A stretch of DNA of 5,674 nucleotides, taken from the IMG/VR virus record IMGVR_UViG_2534681628_000022. One strand, given 5' to 3'. Origin of the DNA: a virus. Lineage: Duplodnaviria > Heunggongvirae > Uroviricota > Caudoviricetes. The notes under the pieces are model-generated. The model had not been told where the DNA came from, did no database searches, and was given only the letters and a program-made list of their open reading frames with translations. The translations under genes and the position numbers were made by a program. Positions 1-5,674 of the stretch are shown piece by piece. Positions within the stretch are counted from its first letter, which is position 1, and every line of letters starts with the position of its first letter.

Positions 1-525
1 TTATACAGCTTTTTTTACATCGTCTTCTCTTGCCGGGAGGTTGTGTTCCTTATTTTCATACTGAGATAAAATCTCTCTCGCTTTTTCCGGCGGTAATGCT
101 TGAAGTGTCTGTAGGGTTCTTTGTTGTTCTACAGTAACCCCCAATGCTTCTAACGCTTTATCTTTGCTAACAATTGTCGGCATAAGACCTTTAATTCCTG
201 CCACACGAATGATCTCAATAGCCGCAGCTTGCTCATCAGGCGTTAAGAAACTCATTGCATAAACTAGCCGCTCATCAACTGTATGATGGCTTGGTACATG
301 TACTGGAGGGGTATCAGAAAATGATGCTCCCTTAATAGCCCTTTGGGTTTCTTCTGGTAAGCTGTTGATGTGATATTCATAAGCCACACCTTTTCCACCA
401 TGACGTTGACGTTTTACCCAATCTTCTGCCACAGCCTTTCTGGTAATGTTAGTCGCCAACTTTGGCACACCAGGCATCCCCTCCAGCTCTTTCGCATTAA
501 ACCATTCTTTGATTTCAAAAGACAT
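1..525 (-). CDS. c: Mu/D108-type phage repressor (c), 174 aa, complete
   Basis: Minus-strand ORF with ATG at 525-523 and TAA at 3-1. The N-terminal ~65 aa are paralogous to the N-terminus of the downstream transposase (shared [20 protein letters not shown]...W..RQ..GKGV). The C-terminal tail (LPPEKAREILSQY...VKKAV) resembles the Mu c repressor C-terminus as I recall it. It is divergent from ner-A-B, as in Mu-family immunity regions. Confidence 0.85.
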   Translation of the reverse strand: MSFEIKEWFNAKELEGMPGVPKLATNITRKAVAEDWVKRQRHGGKGVAYEYHINSLPEETQRAIKGASFSDTPPVHVPSHHTVDERLVYAMSFLTPDEQAAAIEIIRVAGIKGLMPTIVSKDKALEALGVTVEQQRTLQTLQALPPEKAREILSQYENKEHNLPAREDDVKKAV

Positions 526-658
526 TGTTTAAAATCCCAATGATTTCATTAAAGTTGAAAAAATCACTTTAAATTTCAAATAATTAATCAAGATGCTGTA
601 AAATCTTTTCAAATCATCATTGATTCCAAAAAGATTTCACTGTACATTGCTCGATATG
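526..658. promoter_or_regulatory. Divergent operator / early promoter region between repressor and ner; by analogy with Mu also the transposition enhancer
   Basis: 133-bp AT-rich non-coding gap between divergent genes. GATTYCA recurs at 542-548, 622-628 and 633-639; related AAATCAY at 561-567 and 611-617. One IHF-like match AATCAAgatgCTG at 586-598 (one mismatch to WATCAANNNNTTR) follows an A/T tract. Individual operator sites cannot be assigned from sequence alone. Confidence 0.6.
620..648 (+). promoter_or_regulatory. Candidate rightward early promoter (Pe-like)
   Basis: -35 TTGATT (620-625), 17-bp spacer, -10 TACATT (643-648). This would place the transcript start just upstream of the palindrome at 659-688. 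Sequence-only prediction; the -35 overlaps one GATTYCA repeat. Confidence 0.4.
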
Positions 659-688
659 CCGTGAGCTACTTTGCAGAGTAGCTCACGG
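659..688. promoter_or_regulatory. Perfect 12-bp inverted repeat with 6-bp spacer; candidate Ner operator
   Basis: CCGTGAGCTACT (659-670), TTGCAG spacer, AGTAGCTCACGG (677-688); the arms are exact reverse complements. It sits between the predicted early promoter and the ner start codon. No T-run follows, so it is not an intrinsic terminator. Confidence 0.55.
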
Positions 689-712
689 GTGAATCTGAAA
701 GGATTACATGAA

Positions 713-934
713 ATGCATATGAATAAAAGAGCTAACCGCCAAGACTGGCATCGGGCTGACATCGTTGCTGAGTTACGAAAACGCAATATGTCACTGGCCG
801 AATTGGGAAGATCGAATCATCTTTCGTCTTCAACATTAAAAAATGCTTTAGATAAGAGATACCCAAAAGCGGAAAAAATCATTGCAGATGCATTGGGAAT
901 GACACCGCAGGATATCTGGCCATCTCGATACTAG
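713..934 (+). CDS. ner: Ner-family DNA-binding regulator, 73 aa
   Basis: ATG at 713 preceded by AGGA (699-702); stop TAG 932-934. The protein ([34 protein letters not shown]...[14 protein letters not shown]) has the Ner signature DWHRAD...IWPSRY. The ORF track starts at TTG 671, but that lies inside the palindrome and has no RBS, so I prefer 713 (719 is also possible). Confidence 0.85.
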
Positions 935-941
935 GTGCGCT

Positions 942-2930
942 ATGAAAGAGTGGTATACAGCGAAGGAATTGCTTGGTTTTGCTGGTTTGCCAAAGCAAGC
1001 AACTAACATTACACGTAAGGCACAAAGAGAAGGCTGGGTGTTTAGGCAAGTTACAGGTACTAAAGGTGTATCATTTGAATTCAATATCAAATCATTTCCT
1101 GTTGCATTACGTGCTGAAATTTTATTGCAACAAGGAGGTATTGAAACAAGCCAGGGCCGTTTTGAAATCGCCCGCCCCACGCTGGAAGCCCATGATTATG
1201 ATCGTGAGGCACTGTGGAGCAAATGGGATAATGCCAGCGATTCCCAGCGCAGACTTGCTGAAAAATGGTTGCCTGCGGTTCAGGCTGCAGACGAAATGCT
1301 GAACCAGGGGATTTCAACGAAAACGGCATTTGCGACCGTTGCAGGACATTACCAGGTCAGCGCATCCACTTTGCGAGACAAATATTACCAGGTACAGAAG
1401 TTTGCGAAGCCTGACTGGGCGGCTGCGCTTGTTGATGGACGTGGTGCATCCCGTCGCAACGTTCACAAAAGTGAATTTGACGAGGATGCCTGGCAGTTTC
1501 TGATTGCAGATTATCTGCGACCAGAAAAACCCGCCTTCCGCAAATGTTATGAGCGTCTGGAACTGGCAGCCCGCGAGCATGGCTGGAGTATTCCCTCCCG
1601 TGCCACGGCCTTTCGCCGGATTCAGCAACTGGACGAGGCAATGGTTGTTGCCTGTCGTGAAGGTGAACATGCACTGATGCATCTGATACCGGCACAGCAG
1701 CGAACTGTGGAACACCTGGACGCCATGCAGTGGATCAACGGCGACGGTTATCTGCATAACGTCTTTGTACGCTGGTTTAACGGTGATGTGATCCGCCCGA
1801 AAACATGGTTCTGGCAGGATGTGAAAACCCGAAAAATTCTGGGCTGGCGCTGCGATGTGAGCGAGAACATTGATTCAATTCGCCTCTCGTTCATGGATGT
1901 TGTGACTCGCTACGGTATCCCGGAGGATTTTCACATCACCATTGATAACACCCGTGGTGCTGCGAATAAATGGCTGACGGGAGGCGCGCCCAATCGCTAC
2001 CGCTTTAAGGTAAAAGAGGACGATCCAAAGGGACTGTTTTTACTGATGGGCGCGAAAATGCACTGGACAAGCGTTGTTGCTGGTAAAGGCTGGGGCCAGG
2101 CAAAACCTGTTGAACGTGCTTTCGGTGTTGGTGGGCTTGAGGAATACGTTGATAAGCATCCGGCACTGGCTGGCGCATATACGGGGCCAAATCCTCAGGC
2201 AAAACCTGATAACTATGGCGACCGCGCTGTTGATGCAGAGCTGTTTCTGAAAACCCTTGCCGAAGGTGTGGCGATGTTCAATGCCAGAACAGGCCGTGAA
2301 ACAGAAATGTGCGGGGGCAAACTCTCGTTTGATGATGTTTTCGAGCGTGAATACGCCAGAACGATTGTGCGTAAGCCAACCGAAGAACAAAAACGGATGC
2401 TGTTACTGCCTGCCGAGGCGGTGAACGTTTCACGCAAAGGCGAGTTTACGCTTAAAGTTGGCGGCTCCCTTAAAGGCGCAAAAAACGTTTATTACAACAT
2501 GGCATTAATGAATGCCGGCGTGAAAAAAGTTGTGGTCAGGTTTGATCCGCAGCAGCTACACAGCACGGTTTATTGTTACACCCTGGACGGTCGGTTTATC
2601 TGTGAAGCGGAATGTCTGGCACCTGTTGCATTTAATGATGCAGCGGCAGGCCGTGAATATCGCCGCCGCCAGAAACAACTGAAATCTGCAACTAAAGCAG
2701 CCATTAAGGCGCAGAAACAAATGGACGCGCTGGAAGTTGCTGAACTGCTGCCGCAGATAGCCGAACCTGAAGCACCAGAATCACGAATTGTCGGCATTTT
2801 CCGGCCTTCCGGTAATACGGAACGGGTGAAGAATCAGGAGCGTGATGATGAATACGAAACTGAGCGTGATGAATATCTGAATCATTCGCTGGATATTCTG
2901 GAACAGAACAGACGTAAAAAAGCCATTTAA
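942..2930 (+). CDS. A: Mu-family DDE transposase A, 662 aa
   Basis: From about residue 65 onward it matches the MuA sequence as I recall it almost exactly. DDE triad at D268 (1743-1745, NGDGY), D335 (1944-1946, ITIDNTRG) and E391 (2112-2114, KPVERAFG), matching MuA D269/D336/E392 offset by one. C-terminus ends QNRRKKAI, the MuA ClpX recognition tail. SD AGGTG at 929-933. The N-terminal ~65 aa differ from Mu, as described for D108. Confidence 0.97.
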
Positions 2931-2968: not shown

Positions 2969-3907
2969 ATGAATATTTCCGATATTCGCGCAGGACTGCG
3001 CACGCTTGTAGAAAATGAAGAAACCACCTTTAAACAAATTGCTCTTGAGAGCGGACTTTCTACCGGAACTATCAGTAGTTTTATCAATGATAAGTACAAC
3101 GGGGATAACGAGCGTGTTTCACAAATGCTGCAACGCTGGCTGGAAAAATATCATGCAGTTGCAGAACTACCTGAACCGCCCCGCTTTGTGGAAACGCAGA
3201 CGGTAAAACAAATCTGGACAAGTATGCGTTTTGCCAGCCTGACTGAAAGTATTGCTGTTGTATGTGGCAATCCTGGTGTGGGCAAAACCGAAGCGGCCCG
3301 TGAATATCGCCGCACCAATAACAATGTCTGGATGATCACCATTACGCCATCCTGTGCCAGCGTTCTGGAATGCCTGACTGAACTGGCGTTTGAGCTGGGA
3401 ATGAATGACGCACCACGCCGTAAAGGGCCACTCTCCCGTGCCCTGCGACGTCGCCTTGAAGGTACACAGGGGCTGGTTATCATCGACGAAGCTGATCATC
3501 TTGGTGCCGAAGTTCTGGAAGAACTCCGCCTGTTACAGGAATCAACCCGCACTGGCCTTGTGCTGATGGGAAATCACCGGGTTTATTCAAATATGACGGG
3601 AGGTAACAGAACGGTTGAATTTGCCCGTCTGTTTTCCCGTATTGCCAAGCGCACTGCAATTAATAAAACAAAAAAAGCCGATGTAAAAGCTATTGCGGAT
3701 GCCTGGCAGATTAACGGCGAAAATGAACTGGAGTTATTACAGCAGATTGCGCAGAAACCAGGTGCGCTTCGCATTCTGAATCATTCACTTCGCCTTGCCG
3801 CCATGACGGCTCACGGTAAAGGTGAGCGTGTTAACGAAGATTATCTGCGTCAGGCTTTCCGTGAATTAGACCTGGACGTTGATATTTCAACGCTGCTGCG
3901 TAATTAA
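2969..3907 (+). CDS. B: Mu B transposition target-DNA activator (AAA+ ATPase), 312 aa
   Basis: Begins MNISDIRAGLRTLVENEETTFKQIAL, matching MuB as recalled. Walker A GNPGVGKT at 3266-3289 (lysine 106), Walker B VIIDEADHL around 3475-3500. SD ACGAGG at 2954-2959. Confidence 0.97.
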   Translation: MNISDIRAGLRTLVENEETTFKQIALESGLSTGTISSFINDKYNGDNERVSQMLQRWLEKYHAVAELPEPPRFVETQTVKQIWTSMRFASLTESIAVVCGNPGVGKTEAAREYRRTNNNVWMITITPSCASVLECLTELAFELGMNDAPRRKGPLSRALRRRLEGTQGLVIIDEADHLGAEVLEELRLLQESTRTGLVLMGNHRVYSNMTGGNRTVEFARLFSRIAKRTAINKTKKADVKAIADAWQINGENELELLQQIAQKPGALRILNHSLRLAAMTAHGKGERVNEDYLRQAFRELDLDVDISTLLRN

Positions 3908-3922
3908 GAAGGAGAAGAAATT

Positions 3923-4150
3923 ATGATGGCCCGAAATATAAAAATGGCAACGGATGCGCAGAACTGGTTACAGGCGCGCGGGAGTCATGTAAATGAATCA
4001 TATCTCGGCGTGGCGCGTCCGATTCTTGAAATCACTTACCCACCGGTGGAACTGGTAAAAAACGCGGTCAGGATTATGGAGCATAAGTCCGGGGTGGCCC
4101 GTTCTGTATGGACGGCCCGTCTTAATGGTTGTCAGATAATCTGGAGGTAG
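3923..4150 (+). CDS. kil: Kil-like small early protein, 75 aa
   Basis: Immediately downstream of B, as kil is in Mu; strong SD GAAGGAG at 3908-3914; size matches Mu Kil (~74 aa). Assignment is by position and size; I cannot verify sequence identity to Mu Kil without a search. Confidence 0.7.
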
Positions 4151-4157
4151 CATTTTA

Positions 4158-4370
4158 ATGATGGTGATAAACATTCACGATAATCTGGGAATCAGTAAGT
4201 TAATCAACCTTGATAATGTCAGTGTAATGGAAACGACTGTTGAGGGTGGTGTTGCTTTTGAATTTATTGATGGTCACAGGCTGGTCGTTCATGTCGGCAA
4301 CCATCATCACGCAGAAAATGTGCTTTGTGAACTTAACAAAATCACAAATGCAACACCCGTTAATCAATAA
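4158..4370 (+). CDS. Hypothetical small early protein, 70 aa
   Basis: GGAGG at 4143-4147 upstream of ATG 4158 (second ATG at 4161). Tightly packed in the early operon, same strand. Contains a His cluster (VVHVGNHHHAENV). No recognisable domain. Confidence 0.6.
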   Translation: MMVINIHDNLGISKLINLDNVSVMETTVEGGVAFEFIDGHRLVVHVGNHHHAENVLCELNKITNATPVNQ

Positions 4371-4381
4371 GGAGAAACAAA

Positions 4382-4645
4382 ATGGCAAAAGTAATTATTG
4401 AAATTAAAAATACAGTGTCTGGAATTAAAGGACGGAATTTGCGCACCAGCATTGCGGTGGACGGTAGTGTGGAGCTGGACGGTGATGAGGGGACACTTGC
4501 TGGCATGGTGGCGTTACTGGTGCTTAATAAAAGCCAGAAAATAATTAATGAGTCAGCCCATGAAGTTATTGAGATTTTGAAAAGCGATGCTGCCATCACC
4601 GGTGGCCGTGTCACTGAAATGACTGTTGGAAAAACACGCCACTGA
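4382..4645 (+). CDS. Hypothetical small early protein, 87 aa
   Basis: Strong SD AAGGAGA at 4369-4375, 6 nt before ATG 4382. Gly/Asp-rich N-terminal half and a hydrophobic stretch GTLAGMVALLVL too short for a confident transmembrane helix. No recognisable domain. Confidence 0.65.
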   Translation: MAKVIIEIKNTVSGIKGRNLRTSIAVDGSVELDGDEGTLAGMVALLVLNKSQKIINESAHEVIEILKSDAAITGGRVTEMTVGKTRH

Positions 4646-4659
4646 AAGGAATTCCGGCA

Positions 4660-5079
4660 ATGAACAACAAAATCCGAAATGAAATTCAGGCATTAATCCG
4701 AATTCAGAAACGCAATAACAACGGCGGTGAATTACGCGAGTTTATTTGCGCCCGAAAAGTTGATGGCTATGGTGAAAAAACTTACCTGATTACTTTCGAC
4801 CATTACAGCATCTGTGCGCGTTATTGCGGCGAAAGCATATCCCGTGCCATTGCATCTGGCGGTGCGTTCAACGTGGATTTATGGGAGTACGTCATGGACC
4901 GGGAATACATCTGCGCATCAGACCAGAAAGTCCGTGAAATGTGGCAGCGTATCTGGCGCGATTACCGGTTAATGGCAAAAGGCTGGGCGCGCTGCTGTTA
5001 TTCCTCGCTTGCCCTGAAAGCGGTTCAGTTATCGCTGCGGCATATTCCGGCACCACTGCACGAGCTTCTGCTGTACTGA
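4660..5079 (+). CDS. Hypothetical early protein, 139 aa, Cys-containing
   Basis: SD AAAGGA at 4645-4650 before ATG 4660. Basic N-terminus (IRIQKRNNNGGELREF). Six Cys (30, 52, 56, 85, 112, 113) and several His, with no canonical zinc-finger spacing. Confidence 0.65.
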   Translation: MNNKIRNEIQALIRIQKRNNNGGELREFICARKVDGYGEKTYLITFDHYSICARYCGESISRAIASGGAFNVDLWEYVMDREYICASDQKVREMWQRIWRDYRLMAKGWARCCYSSLALKAVQLSLRHIPAPLHELLLY

Positions 5080-5379
5080 ATGGTGACTGACATGAAGTGT
5101 AATCGTAAGCGCTGGTCACGCGAAGACCGGGAATTTATCGAAGCCAGTGTCGGGAAAATGACCGTTGAAGAAATGGCGGAAAAACTGAAAGTCGCCACAA
5201 CCGCCCTCCGGGCACATGCCAGAAGGCACGGAATTTCATTGTGTGTATACCGAATCAGTGAACACGACAAATATTTATGTCGTGAACTTTATAAAGAAGG
5301 ACTGGATATTCATGTCATTGCCCGAAAGATGGAATTAAGCAATCGGGCTGTATCCAGCATTGTATACAGCGGATATTAA
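5080..5379 (+). CDS. Hypothetical early protein, 99 aa, with two helix-turn-helix-like segments (putative DNA-binding)
   Basis: ATG 5080 directly abuts the upstream stop (TGAATG at 5077-5082); alternative ATG at 5092 preceded by GGTGA. Segments WSREDREFIEASVGKMTVEEMAEKLKVATTALRAHARRHGIS and LYKEGLDIHVIARKMELSNRAVSSIV have HTH-like periodicity; this is inference from sequence only. Confidence 0.6.
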   Translation: MVTDMKCNRKRWSREDREFIEASVGKMTVEEMAEKLKVATTALRAHARRHGISLCVYRISEHDKYLCRELYKEGLDIHVIARKMELSNRAVSSIVYSGY

Positions 5380-5398
5380 TTAACAGGAGCTTTAATTT

Positions 5399-5674
5399 AT
5401 GGCTAAACCAGCAAAACGTATCAAGAGTGCCGCAGCGGCTTATATGCCACAAAACCGCGATGCGGTGATTACCGATATTAAACGCATCGGGGATTTACAG
5501 CGCGAAGCATCACGTCTGGAAACGGAAATGAATGATGCCATCGCGGAAATTACGGAGAAATTTGCGGCCCGGATTGCACCGATTAAAACCGATATTGAAA
5601 CCCTTTCAAAAGGCGTTCAGGGATGGTGTGAAGCGAACCGCGACGAACTGACGAACGGCGGCAAAGTGAAGACG
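5399..5674 (+). CDS. gam: Gam (Mu-type host-nuclease inhibitor, DNA-end binding), N-terminal 92 codons; truncated by window end
   Basis: ATG at 5399 with SD AGGAG at 5385-5389; the frame stays open to 5674. The translation MAKPAKRIKSAAAAYMPQNRDAVITDIKRIGDLQREASRLETEMNDAIAEITEKFAARIAPIKTDIETLSKGVQGWCEANRDELTNGGKVKT matches the Mu Gam N-terminus as I recall it. It is absent from the ORF track because no stop falls inside the window. Confidence 0.85.
   Translation, partial: MAKPAKRIKSAAAAYMPQNRDAVITDIKRIGDLQREASRLETEMNDAIAEITEKFAARIAPIKTDIETLSKGVQGWCEANRDELTNGGKVKT

Follow-up and report, generated by a model that had tools for sequence, protein, structure and literature searches.

Phage Mu carries four small genes, gp6 to gp9 (also E5 to E8), between kil and gam in its semi-essential (SE) early region. 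The SE region shares a long early transcript with A and B, and deletion of the whole region gives a viable phage in which killing is lost and host viability is back to 100% (PMC3325207). Here we analyze the corresponding interval, positions 4158-5379, of a stretch of DNA of 5,674 nucleotides (the window; IMG/VR record IMGVR_UViG_2534681628_000022) that is the left end of a Mu-family prophage of E. coli. An initial annotation had listed in this interval four same-strand open reading frames (ORFs) of 70, 87, 139 and 99 aa with gaps of 0-14 bp, flanked by kil and gam and occupying the place of non-essential Mu early genes. These statements were borne out: the four frames (ORF1 to ORF4) lie on the plus strand, 7 nt after the kil stop codon and with 11, 14 and 0 nt between them, the flanking genes are kil and gam (Table 1), and the interval corresponds to that of Mu E5-E8 (gp6-gp9), whose non-essential nature accords with the viability of the SE deletion. 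It is highly probable that the interval is the promoter-proximal SE early region of a Mu-family prophage, in which the gene at the gp6 position (slot 6) has been swapped, the gene at the gp7 position (slot 7) is an allele of gnarl2, and gp8 and gp9 follow.

Three of the four Mu genes have been treated as accessory genes, the character that had also been proposed for the interval in the window. The 200-gene accessory screen of Silas et al. includes Mu gp6 (UDP0137, labelled 'Zn finger' in their table), gp7 (UDP0063) and gp8 (UDP0119), and does not include gp9 (PMC12373910). Mu gp7 (Mup07; NP_050611.1; Mu 4784..5047) is UDP0063/orf63/gnarl2 of that study (bioRxiv 10.1101/2023.04.06.535777; Nat Commun 2025, PMC12373910). 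Expression of the Mu gnarl2 allele alone in wild E. coli downshifted the O-antigen bands of ECOR1 and ECOR22, and T5 infection rose 10^5-6-fold as a surface or adsorption barrier was removed; disruption of O-antigen genes phenocopied the effect (PMC12373910). The gene is also among the conditional-lethal accessory genes, lethal in some hosts only, and its authors suggest a benefit to a phage that has already entered its host, for instance by keeping kin phages out or by stopping re-adsorption to debris (PMC12373910). Other small O-antigen-modifying phage proteins are gnarl1 and gnarl3, the latter of which binds GalU (Silas et al., PMC12373910). The literature searched held nothing usable on roles for Mu E5, E7 or E8, or for cim, arm or lig mapped to these ORFs, and no experimental work on gp9 was found in it.

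Small accessory proteins that are made early and bind host proteins occur in Mu-like phages of Pseudomonas, for example Tip of D3112 and Aqs1 of DMS3, and their genes lie downstream of the transposition genes. For ORF1 they offer an analogy, useful as a lead only: no homology is expected, and hosts and targets differ.

A non-homologous cassette in slot 6

A megablast comparison of positions 3900-5674 with Mu gave 96.9% identity at 88% query coverage, and the uncovered 12% is slot 6; the annotated Mu and D108 maps and the identities of the individual proteins agree with this picture. In blastn, similarity to Mu and D108 stops at 4149, in the kil stop codon, and restarts at 4362, 8 bases before the ORF1 stop codon. 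The right joint of the cassette falls inside the common sequence AATCAATAAGGAGAAACAAAATG, which bears the ribosome-binding site (RBS) and the start of slot 7. In a global alignment ORF1 and Mu gp6 share 10 identities over 101 positions. Positions 4150-4361 are a precise, gene-for-gene, non-homologous cassette swap for the zinc-finger gene gp6. This swap is the sole unusual feature of the interval and was missed in the initial annotation.

Mu gp6 (E5, Mup06; PF26833) resembles ORF1 in its slot directly after kil, in its size (76 versus 70 aa), in its last codons (NQ-stop) and in the RBS downstream of it. The two differ in composition: gp6 is basic and has 9 Cys in CxxC-type motifs, whereas ORF1 is acidic (pI 5.5) and has 1 Cys. 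ORF1 is soluble, without a hydrophobic segment, and its HVGNHHHAE His cluster and Cys57 are invariant in six of six intact alleles.

The state of slot 6 was compared across 43 Mu-like loci of IMG/VR, with gp8 as the anchor. Every one of them has the order kil-[slot 6]-slot 7-gp8-gp9-gam. Slot 6 holds a gp6-type gene in 26 loci (two subtypes) and an ORF1-type gene in four, and it is empty in the other 13, where a spacer of 32-44 nt is left. Given the common slot, 3' end and downstream RBS and the similar lengths, ORF1 could be a non-homologous functional analogue of gp6, both being small metal-binding proteins with the same early job; the nine Cys and 'Zn finger' label of gp6 would then have their counterpart in the invariant His cluster and Cys57 of ORF1. 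We regard this as quite unlikely. The slot is empty in 13 of the 43 related loci, so no indispensable job is attached to it, metal binding is a guess from sequence alone, and the predicted folds differ, that of ORF1 being beta-rich with one C-terminal helix.

Distribution of the ORF1 family

ORF1 matches a PHROG family of unknown function (phrog_3375, E 8e-34) and no Pfam, NCBIfam or PADLOC family. A tblastn search against 50,697 phage records returned no match even at E 1, and no relatives were found among the GTDB species-representative genomes. In a word-indexed search of 5.8 billion proteins there were 7 close clusters, and all five with a source name come from E. coli. An exhaustive HMMER search of 1.84 billion representatives gave three matches, two of them E. 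coli fragments. The third, a 1363-aa repeat protein (P0032), was rejected as a relative: six short repeats together make up its E of 6e-5, and the Pfam matches to it are uninformative. Kinship to gnarl3 or gnarl2 was also rejected (gnarl3, BLASTP E 0.24 over 14 residues; gnarl2, no relation by profile), and gnarl1 likewise has no sequence relation to ORF1. These proteins are like the slot-7 genes, and possibly those of slot 6, as small early accessory proteins, that is, by functional analogy.

ORF1 is present in 10 of 5,426 complete E. coli genomes, about 70 of which match the flanks, and in many draft assemblies (hundreds; 918 index blocks for one allele). All the occurrences found are in E. 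coli Mu-like prophages, in the place between kil and slot 7. One intact ORF1-type gene, in SE11 (L008 1559-1771), is left unannotated by PGAP.

The AlphaFold2 (AF2) model of ORF1 is weak (pLDDT 64, one of five models above 50), and sequence searches of the PDB gave no significant match for any of the four proteins. Profile and structure searches had been proposed in the initial annotation for each protein; they placed ORF2 to ORF4 and pointed to helix-turn-helix (HTH) units in gp9, and for ORF1 they returned phrog_3375 and no significant structural match. The local Pfam copy is an older one with no family for Kil; precomputed annotations list PF26843 Kil_protein and PF26833 Phage_Mu_gp6. Even in these newer annotations ORF1, gp7, gp8 and gp9 have no dedicated Pfam family.

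Coding status of the four ORFs

For each ORF, 5-9 alleles drawn from Mu, D108 and E. coli chromosomes were compared, and the ratio of non-synonymous to synonymous differences (pN/pS) was calculated by the Nei-Gojobori method. All four frames are intact and free of indels across these independent alleles, and pN/pS is below 1 in all comparisons having synonymous differences. It ranges over 0.13-0.81 for ORF1 (0.37-0.59 at the greatest divergence), 0.06-0.54 for ORF2, 0-0.85 for ORF3 (mostly 0.1-0.5) and 0-0.27 for ORF4, the most constrained of the four genes; the values for kil are mostly 0-0.4, with a single low-divergence pair at 0.88. Overlapping minus-strand ORFs, some of them formerly 'putative' in M64097, are superfluous for explaining this pattern. 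The four ORFs are real genes under purifying selection, beyond chance ORFs. An RBS had been assigned to each of them, and this held in part: Shine-Dalgarno sequences are clear for ORF1 (GGAGG, 4143-4147), ORF2 (AAGGAG, 4369-4374) and ORF3 (AAGGA, 4646-4650), and there is none at the ORF4 ATG at 5080.

These data bear on whether ORF1 is functional at all. It is an orphan with no homologues beyond E. coli Mu-like prophages, PGAP omits the gene in SE11, and its structure model is weak, as might be seen with a chance ORF or a decaying remnant in a spacer. Such an origin is extremely improbable, however, for a frame that is intact and of identical length in six alleles differing at up to 11-12% of nucleotides, with pN/pS below 1, a strong GGAGG 10 nt upstream, a match to a PHROG family at E 8e-34 and carriage in hundreds of assemblies.

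The polymorphism of slot 6 and the relaxed constraint on ORF1 fit accessory genes for host modulation or counter-defence, and we infer that ORF1 may be a dispensable cytoplasmic early protein with a host protein as its binding partner in the lytic phase. A narrower possibility is that ORF1 is a dedicated anti-defence protein against a specific intracellular immune system of some E. coli strains, with slot 6 housing in turn inhibitors of one system or another. In this early operon slot 6 is a hot spot whose gene may be present, absent or replaced by an alternative, ORF1 is small, narrowly distributed and under weaker constraint (pN/pS of ~0.5 versus ~0.1-0.2 for kil and gp9), and phage early accessory regions are enriched in genes of this sort (Silas et al., PMC12373910). 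This possibility is nonetheless unlikely, since ORF1 has no similarity to known anti-defence or defence families, or to gnarl2 or gnarl3, and since its counterpart in the Mu slot, gp6, went through the ECOR-panel screen with no counter-defence phenotype in the searchable text and files of that study (PMC12373910). That direct evidence for a specific anti-defence system was lacking had been said from the outset, and none was found here: PADLOC returned nothing for ORF1 to ORF3 and, for ORF4, two weak matches at chance level (E 0.014).

Slot 7 carries an allele of gnarl2

ORF2 is identical to Mu gp7/E6 (NP_050611.1) at 78 of 87 positions in a gapless alignment of equal length, and it matches phrog_10252 over its full length (E 3e-54). 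As in Mu, it is flanked by slot 6 and gp8 within an early operon of Mu-like layout. The four genes had been described as uncharacterised, with the reservation that they might prove to be characterised Mu early proteins. For ORF2 the description fails and the reservation applies, as this gene is an orthologue of gnarl2 with its published O-antigen and phage-sensitisation phenotype; ORF1 is not a Mu gene. By homology, the allele in the window would act on lipopolysaccharide as the Mu allele does.

Among the 43 loci, slot 7 is of gnarl2 type in 18 and of D108-gp7 type in 25, the latter including a clade only ~40% identical to D108 gp7. The types of slot 6 and slot 7 assort independently, and two complete E. 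coli genomes share the pairing seen in the window (ORF1 type with gnarl2 type). D108 gp7 occupies the same slot as ORF2, is similar in length (89 versus 87 aa) and shares with it the N-terminus MAKVI-E and the C-terminal H, but the identity is only ~25%. In a profile-profile comparison the two types align over 69 columns (70% probability, E 4e-5). Because they share N-terminus, length and C-terminal residue and align profile to profile, slot 7 is probably occupied by one fast-diverging family. In E. coli TUM9757 the slot-7 gene (L007 1785-2055) is frameshifted and annotated as a pseudogene.

gp8 and gp9

ORF3 encodes a basic protein identical to Mu gp8 at 129 of 139 positions (93%) and matches phrog_3690 (E 2e-91). 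Homologues of gp8 were found only in Enterobacterales Mu-like prophages, at identities of at least 70%, and a scan of GTDB species-representative genomes gave no relatives. No Pfam or NCBIfam family, PDB entry, toxin family or PADLOC defence family matches gp8, and its AF2 model is unusable (pLDDT 40). The RBS and spacer of ORF3 (4646-4659) read AAAGGAATTCCGGCA in the window and AAAGGAACGCTGACA in nearly all of 54 other loci; the private variant includes an EcoRI site. Apart from this variant RBS region and a few private substitutions in ORF3, there is essentially no difference between ORF3/ORF4 and Mu gp8/gp9. Several gp8 'variants' in the databases stem from frameshifts: in P0008 (231 aa) gnarl2 and gp8 are fused, and P0018 and P0031 change frame midway. 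These are likely sequencing errors or pseudogenes and no new architectures.

ORF4 is identical to Mu gp9 at 98 of 99 positions. The start annotated in Mu (5080) is unconserved, and diverged relatives carry ATG, GTG or no start codon there. An equivalent of the ATG at 5092, which is used by PGAP and gives a protein of 95 aa with a gap of 12 nt from ORF3, is kept in diverged relatives and in all loci but one; the exception has ATA and may use an upstream ATG. Since the downstream ATG is conserved and the ATG at 5080 has no Shine-Dalgarno sequence, ORF4 probably starts at 5092.

No domain had been named in any of the four proteins, a statement that does not hold for gp9. ORF4 matches phrog_323 ('transcriptional regulator, D5-like', E 2e-28), and its sub-threshold Pfam HTH matches fall in two stretches (about residues 9-50 and 64-95). 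In a family alignment of 13 members, down to 47% identity, 10 of the 13 match HTH_23 (best E 1e-10) and Sigma70_r4_2, and the family profile has a weak match to 2lvs, a tandem-HTH structure (E 0.01). As judged from these family matches, gp9 is probably a small tandem (two-HTH) DNA-binding protein, and it likely acts as a regulator. In the homologue from Pluralibacter gergoviae (P0056; L071 5001-5462; 153 aa) the N-terminal Myb-like HTH unit is duplicated, which makes three HTH units versus two.

The adjacency of gp8 and gp9 could be taken to mean that they work as a module of two genes, for example a toxin-antitoxin pair in reverse order like higBA, with the HTH protein as antitoxin, or an effector and the protein that regulates it. 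In all Escherichia, Shigella and Salmonella loci examined the genes are neighbours, 0-12 nt apart, gp9 has a faint HigA-like HTH match (E 0.02), and the SE region contributes to host killing (PMC3325207). A module of this kind is nevertheless very improbable. In Klebsiella and Pluralibacter gp9 directly follows kil without gp8, so the pair is not obligatory, and the HigA match is far under the cutoff (14.7 versus 47.7 bits). A toxin-antitoxin pair was rejected on the occurrence of gp9 without gp8 in these genera and on the absence of toxin homology in gp8.

A conserved core with accessory slots

In the Mu-like prophages of Klebsiella/Raoultella and Pluralibacter there is no slot 6, slot 7 or gp8, whereas a Salmonella relative retains the Mu-like arrangement. 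Because a gp9 homologue follows kil directly in Klebsiella/Raoultella and Pluralibacter, comparison of these loci identifies kil and gp9 as the conserved core and slots 6-8 as an accessory insert belonging to the Escherichia/Shigella/Salmonella lineage. The accessory list of Silas et al. divides the genes in the same way, with gp6, gp7 and gp8 included and gp9 left out. The interval has variable content between conserved flanks (three states in slot 6, several deep clades in slot 7) and is an accessory region in the sense of these authors. The Klebsiella/Raoultella and Pluralibacter prophages (L068-L071) also carry a DUF3164 protein in place of gam, and some of them have a Peptidase_S24 (LexA-like) repressor instead of the Mu-type c.

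Expression and proposed mode of action

A scan of 3800-5674 revealed no plus-strand promoter-like sites or intrinsic terminators above shuffled expectation. Since there is no internal promoter or terminator signal, co-transcription with ner-A-B-kil on the long early transcript is expected. The four genes would be made only when the early promoter fires, on infection or induction, and not in the repressed lysogen. A repeat search of the region gave short chance repeats only, and Rfam gave only sub-threshold chance matches, all outside the interval, with no family assigned.

We propose that on infection or induction the early transcript from ner-A-B-kil would carry all four genes. From slot 6 an unrelated acidic protein of 70 aa would be made in place of the Cys-rich zinc-finger gp6, and it could act by binding a host component during lytic growth. 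The gnarl2 allele of slot 7 would alter the O-antigen, gp9 could serve as a DNA-binding regulator, and gp8 would be a basic protein specific to the Mu lineage. It is possible, and here we are tentative, that the ORF1 type is an unrecognised host-targeting effector (with a His cluster, possibly PH-like) that alternates with gp6 or an empty site beside gnarl2, and that independent slot-6 and slot-7 alleles tune Mu-like phages to the surface or defence type of particular E. coli lineages.

Several observations weigh against parts of this account. ORF2 differs from the tested Mu allele by 9 substitutions in 87 residues, mostly in the C-terminal third (residues 62-86), and the gnarl2 effect is specific to host strains, so that the phenotype need not carry over; the authors of the study do not know the direct target of gnarl2 (PMC12373910). 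ORF1 has no informative homologue, and its AF2 model is of low confidence. In the window, the Pfam HTH matches of gp9 all fall below the gathering threshold (best 19.9 versus 24.1 bits). Mu gp6 and gp8 were both in the 200-gene screen, and the searchable text and supplements of that study give no phenotype for either (PMC12373910); an accessory position is therefore no guarantee of a detectable counter-defence role.

Features of the window

The features are collected in Table 1. A gap of 19 nt separates the ORF4 stop codon from the gam ATG. Upstream, the immunity region (window 1-1000, with the c repressor, ner and the start of A) is 99.5% identical to that of Shigella phage SfMu and ~86% identical to that of D108. 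Because the immunity region is 99.5% SfMu while the downstream SE region is closest to Mu (97%), the prophage is, from these similarities, a mosaic that joins an immunity region of SfMu type to an early accessory region of Mu type. The 87-aa ner ORF is probably too long: related loci call a Ner of 73-75 aa (HTH_35), consistent with an internal ATG. The minus strand of the c-ner operator region (447-635) weakly resembles the Rfam family PAGEV RNA (21.5 bits versus a gathering threshold of 61.1, E 0.029), most likely by chance.

Table 1. Coordinates and assignments of the features in the window
Feature	Position	Strand	Length	Remarks
c repressor	1-525	minus	174 aa	
ner	671-934		87 aa	mechanical ORF, from TTG
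A	942-2930			
B	2969-3907			
kil	3923..4150	+		74/74 identical to Mu Kil; phrog_2743 'Kil protein', E 2.8e-43; conserved left flank of accessory insert
Swapped cassette	4150..4361	+		DNA without similarity to Mu or D108; exact substitute for the gp6/E5 gene
ORF1 (slot 6)	4158-4370	+	70 aa	non-homologous to Mu gp6
ORF2 (slot 7)	4382-4645	+	87 aa	orthologue of Mu gp7/E6 = gnarl2
ORF3	4660-5079	+	139 aa	orthologue of Mu gp8/E7
ORF4	5092..5379 (probable start)	+	95 aa	orthologue of Mu gp9/E8; alternative upstream ATG 5080 gives 99 aa
gam, 5' part	5399..5674	+		99% identical to Mu Gam (tblastn); right flank; in Mu annotated as host-nuclease inhibitor

Implications for Mu-like phages

Four genes taken as unknown are resolved into the published surface-remodelling gene gnarl2, a conserved HTH protein of the kil-gp9 core, the screened and lineage-specific gp8, and an orphan cassette. 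What is new is the undescribed orphan slot-6 cassette together with the three-state hot spot in which it lies; the remainder consists of textbook Mu ORFs, and because these make up most of the region the gain as a whole is modest. Should ORF1 or the deep clades of slot 7 act in a strain-specific manner, the locus would provide a compact natural system for the adaptation of transposable phages to the diversity of the E. coli envelope and immunity.

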